From a virus: a stretch of 23,432 nucleotides of DNA. Below are positions 5,459 to 20,117 of this stretch, one piece after another. Under the pieces are notes generated by a model, which made no database searches, was not told the DNA's origin, and saw only the letters and a list, made by a program, of their open reading frames with translations. The stretch lies in the UHGV virus genome UHGV-0174115, one strand, 5' to 3'. The first letter of the stretch is position 1; each line of letters starts with the position of its first letter. The translations under genes were made by a program, and so were the position numbers.

Positions 5459-5778
5459 TGCTTACTCCCGGTTTTACGTTGTTCCGCTTTCAAACCTTCA
5501 ATAACAACTTTCAGGTCATTTGTTGACTGTGTTAGCTCTTTAACACTAGTGAGGATTTCAGCGTTCTGTGTGGCCTGATATTCGATTTTGATGTCGTGAA
5601 CATCCACTCGGGATTCCACTCGCTTTGCCAGATTAAGCGCCTCATGCGCATAGGTTTTTGCATCAGTAATATCTTTTTCATTAGAATTGATTTGGTTTTG
5701 AGTTACTCCGTAACCTACCAACCCCGTGGCAACAAATGCTATTATAGGCCAATACCTTAACACTGGGTTATCAGACAT
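5455..5778 (-). CDS. Single-TMD protein upstream of endolysin (putative holin)
   Basis: N-terminal TMD (YWPIIAFVATGLVGYGV) then charged helical C-terminus; first gene of the lysis cluster; AGGAG 9 nt upstream of ATG 5778. Confidence 0.4.
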   Translation of the reverse strand: MSDNPVLRYWPIIAFVATGLVGYGVTQNQINSNEKDITDAKTYAHEALNLAKRVESRVDVHDIKIEYQATQNAEILTSVKELTQSTNDLKVVIEGLKAEQRKTGSKQ

Positions 5779-5804
5779 TGTTTTACACTCCTGGAGAATT
5801 AAAG

Positions 5805-8411
5805 ATGGCTAACTGTAACGATTATATCAGCGCTGATGATTTGAAAACAGGCAAACAAGCGATTTTACATATTGAGCATGTAGCGAAAAGTCGTGATGCT
5901 GCTGGCAACCCTGCACTGGAAGTAACAGATACTATTCGTGGTGAATCAGTTACTAACAAGACGCTTGATGGTTTACAGCGAATGTACACGGGGGCCATTA
6001 GTCAAGTTGGTTATGTCACACTAAAAAGTTTTCAATCAGGCGTACCTTTGCCGAATAACGAACTGACACTACCGAATCAAGTATTACAAGATGAAACAGA
6101 CGGTGAATACTACAGATGGGATGGTGTTTTCCCTAAGGTTGTCCCATCTGGCTCAACACCAGTTAGCACGGGGGGCATTGGTGTAGGTGCATGGTTAAGC
6201 GTTGGAGATTCCACTCTTCGTAGTCAGGTTGAAATTACCGCTGAGTCAATTGGTGTTGTAAGTGGTGTTGTTTCGCAATCTGTAGCAAAATCCAACGCTG
6301 ATATTATCAATGCTAAAGCGGCAGAGATAAGTGCTGTGGGTGGTGGGAAAATAATTTTCACCAGAGATTTATATCAGGTGCATATGAATGAGTCTGATTT
6401 TAGTTCTTCACCCGAAACAATTCGAGTAGCAGCGCTTTGTATTCCTTATGATAATGTAATTCTCGAAGGTCAAGGATGGAATTCAACTACTATACAAGCA
6501 TGGGCAACCAACTCCGCATATGGTGTTTTGCAGTGGTCAAAAGCACCATTGCAAAATGGTGTGACGAAAGTTCATGGTGTGGGTCTACACAACATTTGTA
6601 TCGATGGTAATTACCAAGGGGATTTCACACCGGGGTCTTATGTAAGACAGACAGAAGGGATTGTAGGTGCAGGCATTGAAGGTTTGAGCATCAACAACCT
6701 CAAGGTTAAAAACTGTTCCCACTATGGGATGGGTTTGCAGAACGGCGGCTACAAAGGGTGCATTATTGATGGTTACTGGTCAGAAAATACCGGTGCTGAT
6801 GGTATCGATATTAAAGATAATGGCTCAGTCAGCCGTGCATTCCAGTTAAATAACATCTTTGTTTTTAATTTTGGACAACTTGATGAACCAAAGAACCCAT
6901 GGGCTGGTGTTGATGTCATGTCAATTGCGCCAAAAGTATCTAATGTCTACATTTCTGACTTTGGAGATGTTGGTTGCCCAGGGGCGGGTGTTCGCATAAA
7001 GCAGGGACCAATAGGTGATCTGGCTGGAAGGGGATCAAGTGCGTGGGCAAATGTTTCTGACATAACGGTTGTACAAAACAGGTTTGGTGCAGCTTATACG
7101 ACATTGATTGGGCTGCACATAAAAGCTCCTTTTGTAAACTTCAGCAACATCGTTGCAATAGGATACGAAGGCGGGAGAATGAAAAATGGCGTCTGGATAG
7201 AAGAGAGGCACAGCCGGGGTTCTAATATTCAGATAGCCAACGCGGAAGATGGTTTATCTGTTACCGCCTCAACCAGTGGCACATCTGATGGACGACAGTA
7301 TGGTGATGGTGACGATACGGTAATTAACGGCCTTGTATGCAGAGATGTTAACCGGGCTGCAATCATCAACAGGAAATACGTGAAGTTAAGTGGGATAACT
7401 TTTAAAGATTGCCCTGTAGGGTTTGTATCTGGTGGTAGTGGCTCTGGTAAAATAACGATAAAAGGGGTGCATTTAGATAATGTTCCAAACCCATTTGGTC
7501 TAATGGGCGGAACTCACCACATCATCACTGATGTTACCGGCCCAAGCTCTGCAGATTGGCAGGCTGGGACTGGTGTTATAAAAGGTGCAAGTGATTTTGT
7601 TGCCACCACAATCATGAGCAAAAATAGCATACGTCTTTATTCTGGCTCCACAGATGATGCGCTTGGTACGGAAGTCGCGCGCTTTGCCTCGACTGTAAGT
7701 GATGTATTTTCTACGCTGCGTATCACTGGCAACCTCCAGCCGGTCGCCGCTAACACATATTCTGTAGGTACAAACTCATTGCCATGGGCAGGCGGTTATA
7801 CCCAGACGGCGTTTACTGTCACCTCCGATGAAAGGCAAAAATCTCGCCCAGTGATGCTGGCTCGTGGTTCTCTCGAACCCGCCCAAACGACAGATTCACG
7901 GTTAATGGAAGCCCCGTACGCAGATGATATTCTGGATGCCTGGGCGGAAGTAGATTTCGTTCAGTTCCAGTTCATTGACCGAATAGAGGTAAAGGGAGAC
8001 GATGGTGCGCGCTGGCACTTTGGAATTATTGCTCAGCGTGCCAAGGAGGCATTTGAACGCCACGGACTTGACCCTCACAAGTTTGCTTTCTTCTGTTACG
8101 ATCCAGAAGAAACCATTCCTGCTGTGTATGAATCCGTCCCGGCGAAGTATGAAGTTGTGCCAGCCGTTTATGATGCCGATGGGAATCTGGTTTCGCCAGA
8201 GTTGTGGGAAATGACTGAACCAGCGCATGAAAAGTTGGTGGCTGAGTCATATGTTGTTGGTGAGAAGTATGGTATCCGTTATGAAGAGGCGTTAGTCCTT
8301 GAAGCTGCATTACAACGAAGGAAATATACAAGACTCTTGACGTTAACCGAAAAACTAGCGTCAAGAGTAGAAATACTAGCGTCAAGAGTAGAAATACTAG
8401 AAAAGAAATAA
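5805..8411 (+). CDS. Tailspike/tail fibre with beta-helix (pectate-lyase-like) region and C-terminal intramolecular chaperone (peptidase S74-like) domain
   Basis: Gly/Asn-rich central region (e.g. NCSHYGMGLQNGGYKGCIIDGYWSENTGADGIDIKDNG) and C-terminal ...DSRLMEAPYADDILDAWAEVDFVQFQFIDRI...ARWHFGIIAQ... resembling endosialidase-type chaperone domains. ATG 5805 with GGAG 8 nt upstream (track 5778 is TTG). Confidence 0.8.
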   Translation: MANCNDYISADDLKTGKQAILHIEHVAKSRDAAGNPALEVTDTIRGESVTNKTLDGLQRMYTGAISQVGYVTLKSFQSGVPLPNNELTLPNQVLQDETDGEYYRWDGVFPKVVPSGSTPVSTGGIGVGAWLSVGDSTLRSQVEITAESIGVVSGVVSQSVAKSNADIINAKAAEISAVGGGKIIFTRDLYQVHMNESDFSSSPETIRVAALCIPYDNVILEGQGWNSTTIQAWATNSAYGVLQWSKAPLQNGVTKVHGVGLHNICIDGNYQGDFTPGSYVRQTEGIVGAGIEGLSINNLKVKNCSHYGMGLQNGGYKGCIIDGYWSENTGADGIDIKDNGSVSRAFQLNNIFVFNFGQLDEPKNPWAGVDVMSIAPKVSNVYISDFGDVGCPGAGVRIKQGPIGDLAGRGSSAWANVSDITVVQNRFGAAYTTLIGLHIKAPFVNFSNIVAIGYEGGRMKNGVWIEERHSRGSNIQIANAEDGLSVTASTSGTSDGRQYGDGDDTVINGLVCRDVNRAAIINRKYVKLSGITFKDCPVGFVSGGSGSGKITIKGVHLDNVPNPFGLMGGTHHIITDVTGPSSADWQAGTGVIKGASDFVATTIMSKNSIRLYSGSTDDALGTEVARFASTVSDVFSTLRITGNLQPVAANTYSVGTNSLPWAGGYTQTAFTVTSDERQKSRPVMLARGSLEPAQTTDSRLMEAPYADDILDAWAEVDFVQFQFIDRIEVKGDDGARWHFGIIAQRAKEAFERHGLDPHKFAFFCYDPEETIPAVYESVPAKYEVVPAVYDADGNLVSPELWEMTEPAHEKLVAESYVVGEKYGIRYEEALVLEAALQRRKYTRLLTLTEKLASRVEILASRVEILEKK
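8355..8396 (+). repeat. Perfect 21-nt tandem duplication (ctagcgtcaagagtagaaata x2) encoding LASRVEI x2 at the tailspike C-terminus
   Basis: Direct read of sequence; in-frame heptad duplication followed by LEKK and stop. Confidence 0.75.
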
Positions 8412-10940
8412 TTAATCATCCTGATAATAACGTGCATCATAATTGATGCACGTTAAACCCACTTGATAGTTATTATCCCTCCCTGATGGTTCCATAGTCT
8501 GAACCAACATCGCTAGCTTACTCCGTTGGTCATCTGCTCGGATCACAAATGCGGTTCGGTCACGTAACCAACCCGTATAAATTTCTTCAGACGGTTGATG
8601 ACTCAGGATTACTGTGAATTCATCGTTTCCAGCAATAATTGGAATATTTTCAATTGTACCCAGTCGCCCAGTAAGCGTAATTGAATAAACGTTACCTGGT
8701 GCAATTACCACCGGATCACTTAAAGTAAGTGTTAAGCCATTTACATCTTCAACGAAACCTTCCATTTGTTTCATTCGAGTGTTGTCGATCATGTCGACTC
8801 GCATACCGGGTGTAGCCTGTAACCCGATACTGTTGGTAATTGTTTCGTGGGTTATGCGTTGATAGCGAAGTTTGTTCATTTCACGATCAGCACGGATTGT
8901 AGCCAGATACTTAGACTGACACGCAACCAGGTCAATTTTGTTCAGGTTTATTTCTTCACCACGGGTGACATACAGATAAGACTTAACATCGTGGTCGAAG
9001 TATTTAACCTGAACGCCTGTATAATCTTTTGGTGGGGCGAATGTGCGGGTACGTTTATCACTGTCCGGGATCTTATATGCGTGACCAAACTGCATAGCAG
9101 ACTGATCCTGTGGTAATTCGGGCCAGAAGTATAGCACACTACCGACCTGATACGGGGTCACATTAACGGTACTGCAAATCGTCTGTAACCCTTCTTCGTA
9201 GGTGGTGCTATTGTTATCAAACGTGTAACCAGCCTGAATAGCACGAATATCACCAAAGTAATCTAACAATTGTTGTTGAACTGCGTACAGTGCTGTCTGG
9301 TCTATTGTACTGATGGTACGACGACCAAATACAGGATCGAGGTGCATGGACATAACAATGTCTGCGAAGTTCGAACTTGCGATACCATTATAAACACGGG
9401 TTGCTGTCATGTTTAATTTACGTTCTTTTTGTTTTAAAGCAGCATTGGTCGCTTTTGTTACAGCATGAATAAGCGTTACATCACCATAAGAGCGTGGTGA
9501 AATGTTACTGATTGCGTAGAGATCACGCCATTTAACATTGTCAACAACTGTTCCTTCGAAGTCTTTATCCGTATTCGATAAACGTCTTACCGAAACGTTT
9601 ACAGGTCCATTAAACGGGTTTTTCAGTATGACAGTCTTACCCACTGATTCCGTAAATCGTCCGGTAACCTGAAACGGATGATTTACACTCGCCTGAATAC
9701 CTGCTGGGTCTGAAAGAATCAACATGAAATCAATAGTAAATGGGTATACATCACCGTCCGTTTTATACACTCCGTTCTGCGCATACATGTTAATCATTAC
9801 TTTATCAGCATTTTCTAATAGATATGGTCCGACAATATACGGCGTGGTACTGTCAAGAGACGGTGAAAACTTGTATAAAACACTTCCACTTTCTTCGGTA
9901 GTTTCAAGTTCCCAGTAACCATCATTTCGCAAATAAGCCTGTGTATATGCAGCCTGGCCATTTTCAGACAGAATATCCCAACCATCACGACCATTAGTAT
10001 CAATGATTAACGTATTCTCACCTGCATAAATAACATCATATTCACCGGACAGGTCATTACGTACATACGTGTTTAACGGTAACGTATTAGGTGTAAAACT
10101 GTAAAATTGTGATAAACGAATTTTACCACCGATTGGTGCACGTTCTGACCAGTCAATCGTAGTGTTATCATCGCTGGAAATCGTAGTATCAATTTCACCA
10201 GTGCTGTAAATTTTAAAACTCGCTTTGCTGATATCAGCATAGTTTGGTGGCTTGACTTCAGATCCGTCTGCTTCGTTCGATGACTTAGCAACCATGATCG
10301 GAAAAGTGTTAATATCAATTGCACCACCGATATTCATGTACGGCGAACCATAACCGGGCGCATTACCTTTTTTATAAAAGTCTAATTTTTCACCACTGAT
10401 ATTTATAGCAGGTGTAATACCGTCACGAACATCTTCGACTTCGTATTCACCAACACCCAGACACAGAAACTGAACTTCATATTCTGTTCGGTCAATGAAG
10501 ATTCGGTAGTCCATTAACAGATCGGGATATGCCAGTACACGACCACGGATATCAGAAATACGTTCACCCGGTCGTGAAGCGTTGGTACGCCCCTGAAGCG
10601 CGTTGTTAGATGATGCTGAACGTGAGTTCTTAAGATTAGCCGACGCACTGGTATTCGGCATGAACAATTTTAAAATGGGGTTTAAAATTGTGCTAATAAC
10701 TTTCGTTATTGCACTAACCACCCCACCTTTTGGTAATTCATAAATGTGATAAACAGCATCAGGATCAGTTAATACGCTGGGGTCAGTGACCCATTTCTGG
10801 GTAATGTTTTCGTCGTTTTTATAAATCAGTAACCCACGCGGACGAACTGTACCCACGGGCCAGCGTTTCAGCATCCATTCACCAAAGTCAACGTTATCCG
10901 CATGTTCAACAGGATTAGTGTGATAAATGACTTTAGACAC
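8412..10940 (-). CDS. Large tail-tip / central fibre (host-specificity, J-like by position) protein, 842 aa
   Basis: Last and largest gene of the tail-tip module downstream of tape measure and small tip proteins; GTG start 10940 with GGAG 9 nt upstream. No specific motif recognised. Confidence 0.5.
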   Translation of the reverse strand: MSKVIYHTNPVEHADNVDFGEWMLKRWPVGTVRPRGLLIYKNDENITQKWVTDPSVLTDPDAVYHIYELPKGGVVSAITKVISTILNPILKLFMPNTSASANLKNSRSASSNNALQGRTNASRPGERISDIRGRVLAYPDLLMDYRIFIDRTEYEVQFLCLGVGEYEVEDVRDGITPAINISGEKLDFYKKGNAPGYGSPYMNIGGAIDINTFPIMVAKSSNEADGSEVKPPNYADISKASFKIYSTGEIDTTISSDDNTTIDWSERAPIGGKIRLSQFYSFTPNTLPLNTYVRNDLSGEYDVIYAGENTLIIDTNGRDGWDILSENGQAAYTQAYLRNDGYWELETTEESGSVLYKFSPSLDSTTPYIVGPYLLENADKVMINMYAQNGVYKTDGDVYPFTIDFMLILSDPAGIQASVNHPFQVTGRFTESVGKTVILKNPFNGPVNVSVRRLSNTDKDFEGTVVDNVKWRDLYAISNISPRSYGDVTLIHAVTKATNAALKQKERKLNMTATRVYNGIASSNFADIVMSMHLDPVFGRRTISTIDQTALYAVQQQLLDYFGDIRAIQAGYTFDNNSTTYEEGLQTICSTVNVTPYQVGSVLYFWPELPQDQSAMQFGHAYKIPDSDKRTRTFAPPKDYTGVQVKYFDHDVKSYLYVTRGEEINLNKIDLVACQSKYLATIRADREMNKLRYQRITHETITNSIGLQATPGMRVDMIDNTRMKQMEGFVEDVNGLTLTLSDPVVIAPGNVYSITLTGRLGTIENIPIIAGNDEFTVILSHQPSEEIYTGWLRDRTAFVIRADDQRSKLAMLVQTMEPSGRDNNYQVGLTCINYDARYYQDD
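8429..8454. terminator. 11-bp perfect-stem hairpin (aacgtgcatca-taat-tgatgcacgtt) at the junction of convergent tailspike and tail-tip genes
   Basis: Perfect inverted repeat read directly; lies within the last codons of the minus-strand gene, 18 nt past the plus-strand tailspike stop. No clean U-tract, so terminator role is tentative. Confidence 0.35.
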
Positions 10941-18454: not shown

Positions 18455-18829
18455 TCAGGCCGCTCCAACAGGGTGAATAAATGCCATATCATCCCCTAAC
18501 AATCGTGGGTTTTGACGATCAAGAAGGCGATATTCTTTACCACGTTCATCAACCACAACATCACCCCGATCAGGAACAAATCGCGGTTCAAAACTCTGAC
18601 TATCCATAATTACCATCGTTGTGGTTATTCTGGTCATAGTAGTCGGATCCCACTTTTCTAATGGGTAAATATAACCACGACAGGTGTGTGATTCAGTAAC
18701 GGTTGTACCCGGTAATGTAGGATTAGACGGGTTGGGAACTGTTGTCACACGTTTTACCGTCAAATCTTCACCTACTTCAGCAAGTGCACGAGTAACACCT
18801 TTCAGGACACTTTGACGTTTGTCTGCCAT
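18455..18829 (-). CDS. Head closure / head-tail adaptor-like protein (by position)
   Basis: ~124 aa; ATG 18829 overlaps upstream TGA. Confidence 0.4.
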   Translation of the reverse strand: MADKRQSVLKGVTRALAEVGEDLTVKRVTTVPNPSNPTLPGTTVTESHTCRGYIYPLEKWDPTTMTRITTTMVIMDSQSFEPRFVPDRGDVVVDERGKEYRLLDRQNPRLLGDDMAFIHPVGAA

Positions 18830-19239
18830 CACCGTTCACCCTCGTTAAGTGCACGACCACCGCTTTCAAGTGTTACAGGTGGGTTGTCGAACTGACCACG
18901 TTGAATAGCAGGTTGCATACCAGCGCCAGTTAATGTAGCTCCACCAACACCCATAAAACTACCTAACAAACCGCCACCTGAATCAGCGCCAGTATTAATA
19001 CGTAAAATAAAATCTTTTTTAAGTTTATTCCAGGCGTCTGCTGACTGACTACTGCTGAGTGAGATCGGACCTACTTTAATATCAGTATCGTTGCTGGCAA
19101 TAGACGCCATATAATCACAGAGAGCGACGCAAATACTGAGAGGATTTGTATAACCGTTGTCAATGTACCACTGAATTTGTTCATCAGTAACATCAGGGAC
19201 ACTGATCAAATAACGAATACCTTCAACTGTAATAGCCAT
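18829..19239 (-). CDS. Hypothetical structural (connector-region) protein, 136 aa, Gly-rich C-terminus
   Basis: Start taken as ATG 19239 (AGGTGA 4 nt upstream); the longer track ORF (to 19413) would read through an intrinsic terminator hairpin. Confidence 0.4.
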   Translation of the reverse strand: MAITVEGIRYLISVPDVTDEQIQWYIDNGYTNPLSICVALCDYMASIASNDTDIKVGPISLSSSQSADAWNKLKKDFILRINTGADSGGGLLGSFMGVGGATLTGAGMQPAIQRGQFDNPPVTLESGGRALNEGER

Positions 19240-19278
19240 GTGATCACCTGTGAGAAATGTTTTCGTTATATTAGCACG

Positions 19279-19304
19279 AAAAAAAGCCGTCTTAAACAGA
19301 CGGC
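19279..19304 (-). terminator. Intrinsic terminator (GCCGTCT-gttta-AGACGGC then U7 on minus-strand RNA)
   Basis: Plus strand reads aaaaaaaGCCGTCTtaaacAGACGGC; on the minus strand a 7-bp GC-rich stem is followed by 7 T. Lies at the 3' end of the non-coding island, ~40 nt upstream of the next gene start. Confidence 0.6.
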
Positions 19305-19328
19305 AAATGGCTCTGGGTGATAATGAGG

Positions 19329-19408
19329 GTTTTACATAACTGGTCATCCACACCTGACGTCCCAACATACCCCTATGCGTGACACGTGAATAACCAGTTA
19401 TGTAAAAC
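19329..19408. repeat. 16-bp perfect inverted repeat (gttttacataactggt / accagttatgtaaaac) separated by 48 nt
   Basis: Arms at 19329-19344 and 19393-19408 read directly; spacer contains the palindromes gacgtc and cacgtg. Confidence 0.7.
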
Positions 19409-19718
19409 GACACGCAGTTCAGGATGTTTCACAACATGCTTTACCCACGATTTGCGGCTTTCCCGCCAGCAAGATAAGGATCACCTCCTTATCAGCGAGT
19501 GTTTGGTTGCAGTGCCAGGCGCTTATCTTCTGGTTGTTTCTGAGAACTGCAATTCACCACAACGATAAGAGCACTGAGATGTATGATAATCGTCGCAGCA
19601 CCACTTTAAACAACTCAATGCTCTTACCTGTTGTGTGCCGGTTACGTTTATCCGGCGTCTTTCGACCGATTAAGTGGTAGTGTCTGCTATGCAGTTCTGT
19701 CACTGACTTAACAATAGG

Positions 19719-20072
19719 TCAAGAATAGTTATATGTCAAGCCTTGTGATTCACACCATTCAGCAGCGGCACTTTTACTGCTGAATGATTCTGAATTCATC
19801 GGCATACCCATAACATAAACGTTATAGGTTTTTGGCGCGTCACGTCGGATTTCAGCCGCAGTGGTTGATGCCGATTCTTCGGTTGCTACAGTCACTGGTT
19901 CTTCAACGGTCACAGTAGCTGGTTCAATGTGGCGCATACGCACAAGGGCATTTAAAACAGCCGGGATAGCTTTTGATGTTGATACTTTATCGCCAGCGGA
20001 CATCTGTTTACCGTTCCACAGCATCGGACGGGTGAAAACATATTTCAGTGACGGATCATATGAATTACGCAT
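19719..20072 (-). CDS. Hypothetical protein (117 aa) downstream of the major capsid gene
   Basis: ATG 20072 with GAGG 9 nt upstream, just after the capsid-gene terminator; the longer track ORF (to 20315) would overlap the capsid gene 3' end. Confidence 0.5.
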   Translation of the reverse strand: MRNSYDPSLKYVFTRPMLWNGKQMSAGDKVSTSKAIPAVLNALVRMRHIEPATVTVEEPVTVATEESASTTAAEIRRDAPKTYNVYVMGMPMNSESFSSKSAAAEWCESQGLTYNYS

Positions 20073-20087
20073 GATTTTAACCTCATG

Positions 20088-20117
20088 AAAAAAAAGGGGC
20101 AGCATAAGCCACCCCTT
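20088..20117 (-). terminator. Intrinsic terminator after the major capsid gene
   Basis: On the minus strand an imperfect stem (4 G:C pairs, two mismatches, 2 more pairs, loop of 4) is followed by T8; lies 20 nt past the capsid stop. Confidence 0.55.

Follow-up and report, generated by a model that had tools for sequence, protein, structure and literature searches.

A gap of 479 nucleotides (nt) separates the head genes from the neck genes in the virus genome UHGV-0174115, whose virion genes are located on the minus strand. The gap extends from position 19240 to 19718 of the analysed stretch of DNA (23,432 nt in full length, referred to as the window). We propose, with a probability of about 0.6, that this island is an accessory cassette of non-coding RNA, a "non-coding moron", made up of portable structured modules with a long stem (LS) of the ribonuclease III (RNase III) type. 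An earlier note on this DNA had placed a non-coding island between the gene for a protein of 117 amino acids (aa) and the neck genes, and both the position and the length of the gap were confirmed. Because a region of 651 bases around the gap is 98.8% identical to Escherichia phage KarinMuster_Bas82 (Bas82) and 97.7% identical to Salmonella phage Sasha, the window is assigned by sequence to Sashavirus, that is to the 9NA-like virulent siphophages. The cassette is accessory, because relatives carry tRNA-Ser or transfer-messenger RNA (tmRNA)-like modules in the same slot and phage 9NA lacks most of it. According to the sequence comparisons the RNA consists of modules in a row, which fold independently and are exchanged horizontally, and the window contains a tRNA-less version. 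The elements of the cassette are the following:

19711-19739, minus strand: predicted sigma-70-type promoter, TTGACA-N17-TATTGT, with 10 of 12 consensus positions
19684-19694, minus strand: small 5' hairpin CUGC-AUA-GCAG with the first GAACTGC copy; present in 9NA as CUGC-GUU-GCAG, and also in Klebsiella phage Carvaje and in VLCpiS10a
19635-19666, minus strand: two-hairpin module, GUC-GAAA-GAC (GNRA loop) followed by GCCGG-AUAAACGUAA-CCGGC
19558-19635, minus strand: LS unit, 5' arm CACAAC-A-GGUAAGAGCA (19635-19619) paired with the 3' arm UGCUCUUAUC-GUUGUG (19573-19558)
19506-19560, minus strand: domain D2, closed by UUGCAGU/ACUGCAA, with the hairpin CCAG-AAGAUAAGCGC-CUGG and the GCAGTTC motif (copy 2)
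19412-19503, minus strand: module C, with a Shine-Dalgarno mimic UAAGGAGGUGAUCC (19491-19478), UCUUGCUG, the hairpins H1 and H2, a mini open reading frame (mini-ORF) and the third GAACTGC copy
19472-19419, minus strand: mini-ORF of module C with TTG start, 17 codons (MLAGKP...), 10-11 nt downstream of the perfect Shine-Dalgarno sequence
19466-19454, minus strand: hairpin H1 of module C, GCGG-GAAAG-CCGC
19437-19424, minus strand: hairpin H2 of module C, AUGUU-GUGA-AACAU
19329-19408, minus strand: module B, a hairpin with a perfect stem of 16 base pairs (bp) and a conserved G-rich loop with UAGGGGUAUGUUGGG; an insertion specific for the Sasha group
19279-19304, minus strand: intrinsic terminator GCCGUCU-GUUUA-AGACGGC followed by U7; stem at 19304-19286, 7 bp, 5 of them G-C

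The LS unit of the window belongs to a family, which we defined by CACAAC-A-GGUAAGAGCA paired with UGCUCUUWYC-GUUGUG, with a variable insert between them, on the tRNA-sense strand; positions 19635-19558 conform to this definition. All 16 scored pairs form in the window, one of them as G-U. Including the adjoining pairs the predicted fold contains a duplex of about 21 bp, which encloses a cargo of 45 nt (19618-19574). The exact 17-mer of the 5' arm was detected in at least 120 IMG/VR contigs, and among the listed copies (n = 129) nearly all have the matching 3' arm, with 87 distinct inserts. In phage lambda LS is located at 44,787-44,870 and begins 8 nt after the U-run of tR', the terminator of the 6S RNA; in our reading of the lambda fold it is the only duplex of about 20 bp without a following U-run between tR' and S. 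LS was also found between tR' and the holin gene in HK629 and in the late leaders of lambdoid and P22-like prophages, and in P1 a covarying LS directly follows tRNA-Thr. A scan of a whole-genome collection with the 17-mer gave 102 matches in 596 Gb, of which roughly two thirds are expected by chance; the credible ones are from Enterobacterales. By sequence, LS and its partner modules are present in lambda, P1 and hundreds of other enterobacterial phages and prophages, usually beside tRNA genes, and LS appears to be a so far undescribed conserved RNA element of phages.

For the analysis of covariation LS units were collected by sequence similarity alone, with at most 4 substitutions per arm and no pairing requirement. 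The resulting set of 246 units with 61 distinct arm pairs shows changes on both sides in 11 of the 16 pairs, for example GGUAAGGGUA/UACCCUUACC in P1 and AUAAUGGCA/UGCCAUUAU in locus L075. The fraction of paired cells was 92.6%, compared with 30-62% when the partner column was slid, and none of 500 shuffles reached any of the five measures used. G-U pairs exceed A-C mismatches on the minus strand by 35 to 14, which points to an RNA read in the tRNA sense. All units with a tRNA gene within 1.5 kb (57 of 57) are co-oriented with this gene, and a T-run of at least 4 immediately precedes 93 of the 246 units. The comparison of homologous phages for compensatory changes, which the earlier note had suggested, was positive beyond LS, as H1 and H2, the small hairpins and the stems of module B covary as well. 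The same note had called the island highly structured and had assigned it to the transcribed strand. Folding of the minus-strand RNA 19704-19268 gave -155 kcal/mol and z = -6.1, far beyond shuffled sequence (plus strand z = -4.9), and together with the covarying helices and the excess of G-U pairs this agrees with that description. Among the roles offered in the note the covarying helices, the 35:14 ratio and the common orientation with tRNA genes favor a structured non-coding RNA.

These data also bear on a function of the island as DNA-level site (packaging, replication origin or recombination site) or as small protein gene, which we regard as extremely improbable. The inverted repeats and the recombination hotspot would suit a DNA site, but the tolerance of G-U pairs is strand-specific and the orientation is tied to the tRNAs. 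In addition, the same modules occur in lambda and P1, whose cos and pac sites and origins are located elsewhere. The packaging site of lambda is cos and its replication origin is in gene O, the packaging site of P1 is pac in pacA, and all of these are far from the modules; because of this distance the packaging or replication site considered in the earlier note is not supported. For a protein gene speaks that some GenBank records contain annotated ORFs in the gap. However, the ORF calls in this slot disagree from one record to another, the homologous stretch is annotated as non-coding in the Sasha record, and close relatives (Bas82) are set apart by a 1-nt indel. The tested ORFs of the gap (47-60 aa, both strands) had no Pfam or PHROG match. 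Hence the gap 19240-19718 contains no credible protein gene, in line with the first reading, which had seen no plausible ORF there.

The second line of evidence is the exchange of the cargo enclosed by LS. The 246 LS units contain 150 distinct cargos. Phage AVIO78A differs from the window at 27 positions of the island, 24 of which are located within the LS insert (19577-19612) and only 3 elsewhere, and in general the differences between Sashavirus islands concentrate in this insert. The cargo of AVIO78A is of the lambda type: several prophage contigs contain the very same cargo, and that of lambda differs by one base. Judged from the sequences, unrelated phages seem to have swapped a cassette cleanly here. 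The cargos of Sasha and PDP46 share their 3' half with the window cargo, and the first 11 nt of the Sasha cargo are the same as in the Skate-type cargo. These patterns indicate that the LS arms behave as fixed flanks, between which inserts are exchanged, also between near-identical phages. A swapped cargo in phages that are otherwise nearly identical represents a cassette-exchange mode of phage RNA evolution.

The slot itself is also variable. Its length is about 204 bp in 9NA, 275 bp in SP069, 479 bp in the window, Sasha, Bas82 and AVIO78A, 561 bp in PDP46, about 740 bp in Carvaje, 753 bp in PJ16 and about 1300 bp in VLCpiS10a, and the slots of Carvaje and VLCpiS10a contain tRNA-Ser. Local alignment split the island of the window into blocks which are independently present or absent among the relatives; common to all 9NA-like islands compared are only the promoter region, module C and the terminator. 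A sensitive search of GenBank phages revealed matches of 19514-19575 to P1, P7 and D6, of 19613-19668 to Saltrevirus, Skatevirus, IME207 and seszw-type phages, and of 19637-19671 to myophages of the Klebsiella Taipeivirus group (Ackermannviridae) with 97-100% identity. Each of these matches is located in a non-coding island with tRNA genes and on the tRNA strand. The arrays of Saltrevirus, Skatevirus and IME207 (L004 2162-2697; L014 1098-1700; L015 1033-1738) contain tRNA-Met/Ile and other tRNAs, run antisense to the flanking structural genes and possess their own near-consensus promoter TTGACA-N17-TAGATT and their own terminator; they are therefore autonomous transcription units. A megablast search against complete E. 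coli genomes did not detect the island, and a 34-nt match was present in only 3 genomes.

PDP46 contains a partial duplication within the island (L009 1417-1486), consisting of a second CCGG hairpin and a lambdoid-type start of D2. In PJ16 (L010 1497-1833) a tmRNA-like module and two different LS units replace the 5' half found in the window.

The small 5' modules of the window show the same combination of conserved pairing and changing sequence. We collected 35 distinct variants of the two-hairpin module in related loci. The pairing of its first hairpin is kept with other sequences (GCC-GAGA-GGC, GUCA-GAAA-UGAC, GUCAAC-UUGG-UUGAC), and the GNRA loops found are GAAA, GAGA, GACA and GUAA. The second hairpin (CCGG-A...CGUAA-CCGG) covaries from CCGG/CCGG to CUGG/CCAG. 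Since LS follows the 3' end of tRNA-Thr in P1, L017 and L020 (...TAA(C/T)CGGCACCA), this hairpin may be the descendant of a collapsed tRNA-Thr acceptor stem, which we take as a lead only.

Such an origin would suit the view that the whole island is a decaying remnant of a mobile tRNA/tmRNA-like array, which lost its tRNA, is kept by recent ancestry and spreads by recombination without a current function. We consider this unlikely. It is true that the window has no tRNA and that Carvaje and VLCpiS10a keep tRNA-Ser in the same slot, that the content differs among close relatives and that 9NA is without most of the cassette. Moreover, a test for purifying selection against synonymous sites in close relatives, where the flanks are equally similar, had no power to contradict a remnant. 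But the supposedly decayed parts are conserved across unrelated genera with compensatory changes, the GNRA loops are preserved, the -10 element of the promoter and the terminator are intact, and both the strand bias of the G-U pairs and the co-orientation with tRNA genes point to a constraint at the RNA level.

The three GAACTGC/GCAGTTC motifs listed in the earlier note were found at 19691-19697 (minus strand), 19544-19550 (plus strand) and 19414-19420 (minus strand). The whole window contains 8 such motifs compared with 2.4 expected, and none of 100 shuffled sequences reached this number. The motifs of the island are not one repeated signal: copy 1 is part of the small 5' hairpin and the others belong to two different modules. 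A long-range pairing of copy 1 with copy 2, as present in the predicted minimum-energy fold, was rejected as not conserved, because copy 1 forms a local hairpin in 9NA, Carvaje and VLCpiS10a, which have no copy 2. Domain D2, which contains copy 2, is 82-87% identical to P1, P7 and D6; in PJ16 and SP069 its closing helix is GUUGUGGUG/CACCACAAC, unlike that of the window.

Module C contains the 14-nt complement of the 16S rRNA tail that had been pointed out before, and TAAGGAGGTGATCC is indeed exact at 19478-19491 (minus strand). Matches of this type are expected by chance only 0.06 times per shuffled window, even with 2 mismatches allowed. Local pairing into a hairpin, GAUAAGGA/UCCUUAUC, leaves the mimic half buried, and the element UCUUGCUG is invariant. 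H1 occurs with four types of fully paired stems (GCGG/CCGC, ACGG/CCGU, ACAG/CUGU and GCAG/CUGC) around a GNAAG loop, and H2 with three (AUGUU/AACAU, ACGUU/AACGU and ACAUU/AAUGU) around GUGA. The mini-ORF begins with ML(A/T)GK(P/L) in most copies, in four subfamilies, and has a length of 6-30 codons. Because it is not conserved past codon 6 and is altered in its amino acids by the compensations in H2 (Cys to Arg), we do not read it as a protein gene; we take it for an RNA element that may engage ribosomes. All 9NA-like islands examined contain module C, in each case with the terminator and directly upstream of the neck gene; the module was also found in Swiduovirus CF-SP1 and in prophage contigs of about 45 kb.

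In these prophage contigs the Shine-Dalgarno-mimic module forms a leader with the pattern GGAGGUGAUC-N3-5-UCUUGCUG and a GNAAG hairpin (L232, L234, L239, L243, L244 and L246-L249; L235, L241, L242, L245, L248, L250 and L254). In L234 the module is located between the lysis cassette and the terminase genes.

The constant position of module C and the terminator in front of the neck gene is the main argument for a cis-regulatory leader or attenuator, in which the Shine-Dalgarno sequence, the mini-ORF, H1, H2 and the terminator would set the expression of the neck and tail genes as a read-through switch sensitive to translation or to a factor (of the nut/boxB or leader-peptide type). This reading is possible, though rather doubtful. 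The recurrence of the mini-ORF start in four subfamilies fits to it, as do the short stem of H1 with its GNAAG pentaloop, which is loosely boxB-like, and the lack of a bypass promoter at the terminator. However, no alternative anti-terminator pairing was found in the region, module C of the prophage subfamilies precedes an ORF without an intervening terminator, and the mini-ORF shows the variable length and the amino acid changes described above. Furthermore, UCUUGCUG and AAG are invariant beyond coding needs, and the promoter, LS and module B are left unexplained. The regulatory or attenuation boundary suggested in the earlier note therefore stands as far as a terminator precedes the neck genes; it does not account for the island having its own promoter and for the variable accessory insertion. 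A role as leader is compatible with the RNA cassette and may coexist with it.

The 16-bp perfect inverted repeat, also described earlier, corresponds to the stem of module B. It is contained within 23-nt arms at 19329-19351 and 19386-19408, which are 91% complementary over their length. Relative to 9NA, SP069, Carvaje and VLCpiS10a module B is an insertion. The motif UAGGGGUAUGU(A)UGGG of its loop is also present in Saltrevirus, Skatevirus and IME207-type phages, where the hairpin around it has another stem; the Saltrevirus/Skate-type stem itself covaries (AUAUCC/GGAUAU versus ACAUCC/GGAUGU). Together with the nearby G-runs, this loop (19361-19375, minus strand, in the window) might fold into a G-quadruplex or base-pair with a target rich in pyrimidines.

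The cassette is framed by predicted transcription signals. The 117-aa gene contains the -35 element of the promoter in its last codons, and the -10 element is located directly past the stop codon, with a predicted transcription start near 19704. The -10 hexamer TATTGT is shared by PJ16, 9NA, Carvaje and VLCpiS10a, and SP069 contains TATCGT, all in the form TTGACn-N17; the element is kept in the six 9NA-like relatives where it was located, despite a differing sequence after the -10 position. The AVIO78A record has an annotated promoter at the same place. Both this promoter, which overlaps the end of the 117-aa gene, and the TTG mini-ORF behind the Shine-Dalgarno sequence were absent from the earlier note. 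The strong terminator ahead of the next start codon had been recognized there, and its 7-bp stem with U7 lies about 40 nt before the ATG of the neck gene at 19239. It is kept in all 9NA-like relatives examined and is annotated in the Sasha and AVIO78A records; it has no bypass promoter.

From this arrangement the following course of events can be proposed for the RNA cassette. The minus strand would be transcribed from the sigma-70 promoter and additionally by read-through from the head genes. The cassette RNA would have a length of about 420 nt and end at the terminator near 19280, so that the neck and tail genes would be reached only by read-through of this terminator. The LS duplex is most likely a processing or stabilizing stem for a double-strand-specific nuclease of the RNase III type, since its size of about 21 bp in the predicted fold corresponds to that of an RNase III site (about 20-22 bp). 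Cleavage would separate the late transcript into head and tail segments, as at the intergenic sites of T7. The newly formed ends would keep stems that protect them, and the cargo hairpin would be set free or displayed. The position of LS right after tRNA 3' ends and after tR' also fits a role in which LS shields the RNA downstream of it after the processing of the upstream piece. 30S subunits most likely bind to the 14-nt Shine-Dalgarno mimic with no conserved protein being made, and this would stabilize the RNA or load ribosomes. In this way the cassette would presumably be of benefit to the phage.

Several points weigh against this interpretation. Expression of the cassette and cleavage of LS in this phage are predictions. 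The title of Daniels et al. 1988 (cited in PMC7547250) refers to sites that RNase III processes in vivo in the Q-dependent late transcript of lambda; their coincidence with LS is a supposition. No known protein partner is encoded nearby. 9NA is without LS and module B, and both are thus dispensable. The conservation among close Sashaviruses is uninformative, as third-codon positions of the flanks are equally similar, and the units used for the covariation of LS were chosen by similarity on both strands, which limits their diversity. Finally, the 3' arm of LS resembles boxA (UGCUCUUA/UGCUCUUU), and a role with Nus factors is an alternative. We regard this resemblance as a lead only: a boxA (YGCUCUUUA-type) of an antitermination site is single-stranded and adjoins a boxB hairpin, whereas the arm is base-paired. 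In P1 (UACCCUUACC) and in other units, covariation also makes it less similar to boxA.

The comparison with known RNA families gave no assignment. A scan of the whole window with Rfam 15 at the gathering score had no match, and the best sub-threshold matches were miRNA-precursor models which fit the hairpin shape of LS (23.6 bits compared with a threshold of 100). The covariance-model scan proposed in the earlier note thus identified no family for the window. Rfam was also run on 30 related loci with gathering scores and permissive E-values; this revealed only tRNAs, STnc100 in two relatives, weak matches to tmRNA models and one 16S-like fragment. In the window ARAGORN predicted no tRNA or tmRNA gene, and RF00005 had no match at E <=10 in 19100-19850. 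The cassette was therefore rejected as a tRNA, the only resemblance being that of the CCGG/CCGG hairpin to the tRNA-Thr acceptor stem, and also as a tmRNA, as the pattern of the tag modules described below is absent from the window and neither Rfam nor ARAGORN reported a match.

STnc100 is a small RNA of gammaproteobacteria and prophages with unknown function. Its model (RF02076, gathering threshold 47 bits) had no match in the window at E <=10 and none in lambda-type units at E <=1. It matches the D2-type domain (GUUUGGUGAA...CACCAAAC), which follows LS-like stems in related arrays; the larger D2 versions of other phages reach 52.9 bits in L007 and, below the threshold, 24 bits in L005. In contrast, STnc100 covers neither LS nor module C nor module B. 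In lambdoid late regions its place is close to stx and the holin gene (PMC12370729, PMC13192938).

The late leader of lambda shares with the window the identical 17-mer of the LS arm, a 3' arm that differs at one position (UGCUCUUAUC in the window, UGCUCUUUCC in lambda), a variable cargo between the arms, the D2-type domain behind them and the location on the late-transcript strand. In lambda, however, the unit is part of the leader under Q antitermination and is placed between the 6S terminator, which it directly follows, and the holin gene, whereas in the window it is found in the head/neck gap of a virulent siphophage, where it has its own promoter in front, is joined to other modules and has a terminator at the end. 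Neither an annotation nor an Rfam family was found for the LS element of lambda. The tRNA arrays of phages (the ban-operon leader of P1 and the islands of Saltrevirus, Skatevirus and Carvajevirus) have modules in common with the window, in the orientation of the tRNA strand. Carvaje and VLCpiS10a even use the same genomic slot; the window differs by the lack of a tRNA (ARAGORN, Rfam).

The intergenic RNase III sites of T7 are long duplexes between the genes of a late polycistronic transcript, and STAB-SD of cryIIIA is a stabilizer in the 5' untranslated region with a strong Shine-Dalgarno sequence serving no real gene. Both are analogous to the cassette in layout only and show no sequence similarity. 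Pas small RNAs of prophages in enteropathogenic E. coli are a functional parallel, with PasB inside a structural operon; they were compared by description only. A moron is an independently transcribed insertion in a phage late operon (concept as in PMC2629481). The cassette, with its predicted promoter and terminator between conserved late genes and its variation among relatives, qualifies as a moron as far as the activity of these signals can be judged from sequence. It differs in that its cargo is RNA only and no protein is encoded.

Further candidates were rejected. Bacterial Y RNAs of the YrlA type are characterized by GNCGAAN0-1G in the 5' stem, loops resembling the T- and D-arms and a neighboring Ro60/Rsr gene (PMC4201824). 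GUCGAAAG at 19666-19659 fits this motif, but in relatives it is the GNRA-loop hairpin (GAGA, GACA, GUAA) and the window cargo has no T- or D-arm; YrlA was not among the matches listed at E <=10 in the window and at E <=1 in relatives. The idea of a CRISPR repeat or an RNA anti-CRISPR was dropped, as the CCGG-AUAAACG hairpin is unlike type I-E and I-F repeats (by eye) and AUAAA is not conserved in relatives. An analogy of the CACAAC/GUUGUG ends to integron attC sites was given up as well, since RYYYAAC/GTTRRRY does not fit and an integrase is absent.

The RNA islands of relatives and P1 contain tmRNA-like tag modules, of which we counted 48 copies with 15 distinct tags (L008 ~2650-2480; L012 ~2370-2230; L010 ~1834-1690; L007 ~2730-2560; L029; L006 ~3240-3160, corresponding to ~68.9 kb of P1). 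The tags have the form AN(D/E)x..(L/M/I)(A/M/V)(A/V)A, for example ANDDVVLMAA and ANEEMYLAVA or, in P1, ANDDLMMVAA. A GCA resume codon follows an A/U-rich stretch, often with a double stop and without an ATG. The tag module of P1 is located just downstream of the annotated "dicF-like region" in the ban-operon leader. ARAGORN did not call these tag modules, the tmRNA models of Rfam gave only sub-threshold matches to them (11.7-27.8 bits), and no alanine-accepting tRNA-like domain was found in them. In a prophage late-leader array a 47-nt segment inside D2 (L067 624-670) matches a helix of small-subunit rRNA (38 bits, E 1.6e-7), and resembles E. coli 16S around 240-285, with compensating changes.

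Such modules raise the question of a decoy RNA directed against host defence or the translation apparatus, which would display mimics of stable host RNAs and soak up nucleases or defence sensors. For the window this is very unlikely. Related arrays do contain tRNA genes, tmRNA-like tags, the fragment resembling a 16S helix, a partner of the 16S 3' tail and cargos with a motif like the tRNA T-loop (13 of the 150 distinct cargos; in P1 together with a D-arm-like stem), and the cargo is hypervariable and horizontally swapped. On the other side, the window cargo has no recognizable mimic, 137 of the 150 cargos are without the T-loop motif, a neutral loop between conserved arms would vary too, and the argument is circumstantial with no defence system implicated. 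A broader version appears quite unlikely: LS units and their partners, including those of lambda and P1, could form an undescribed, exchanged "display scaffold", whose conserved arms present hypervariable cargo hairpins as processed decoys against RNA-targeting defences or nucleases of the host, with the island of the window as a minimal tRNA-less member. In this version the arrays would combine them with mimics of the translation machinery of the host, namely tRNA-like elbows, tmRNA-like tags, a 16S helix and the perfect partner of the 16S 3' tail.

If the reading as RNA cassette is true, a seemingly empty gap of 479 nt in a structural operon is a real genetic unit, which annotation pipelines now skip or fill with spurious ORFs. 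LS with its exchangeable loop would then represent a conserved RNA element that lacks annotation and is associated with tRNA genes and tmRNA-like modules. It would offer a handle on an old question, namely the reason for tRNA islands in phages and the role of the sequences that separate the tRNAs.

The neighboring genes of the gap and the translation signal of the downstream gene are:

19719-20072, minus strand: upstream 117-aa gene, Sasha gp37-like (phrog_19242, E 2e-66)
18829-19239, minus strand: downstream 136-aa gene, Sasha gp38-like (phrog_21889, E 5e-86), with the ATG start at 19239
19249-19242, minus strand: Shine-Dalgarno sequence of the downstream 136-aa gene, AGGUGAUC

Outside of the gap, the plus-strand ORF of 877 aa (5778-8411) converges on the minus-strand ORF of 842 aa (8412-10940) at position 8411/8412 with zero bases between the stops and no terminator visible between them. 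A second strong intrinsic terminator with a 10-bp stem followed by a U-run is located at 20094-20117 (minus strand), directly after the major capsid gene and 21 nt upstream of the start of the 117-aa gene. Together with the terminator of the gap, two terminators are thus arranged in series along the head-to-tail stretch.

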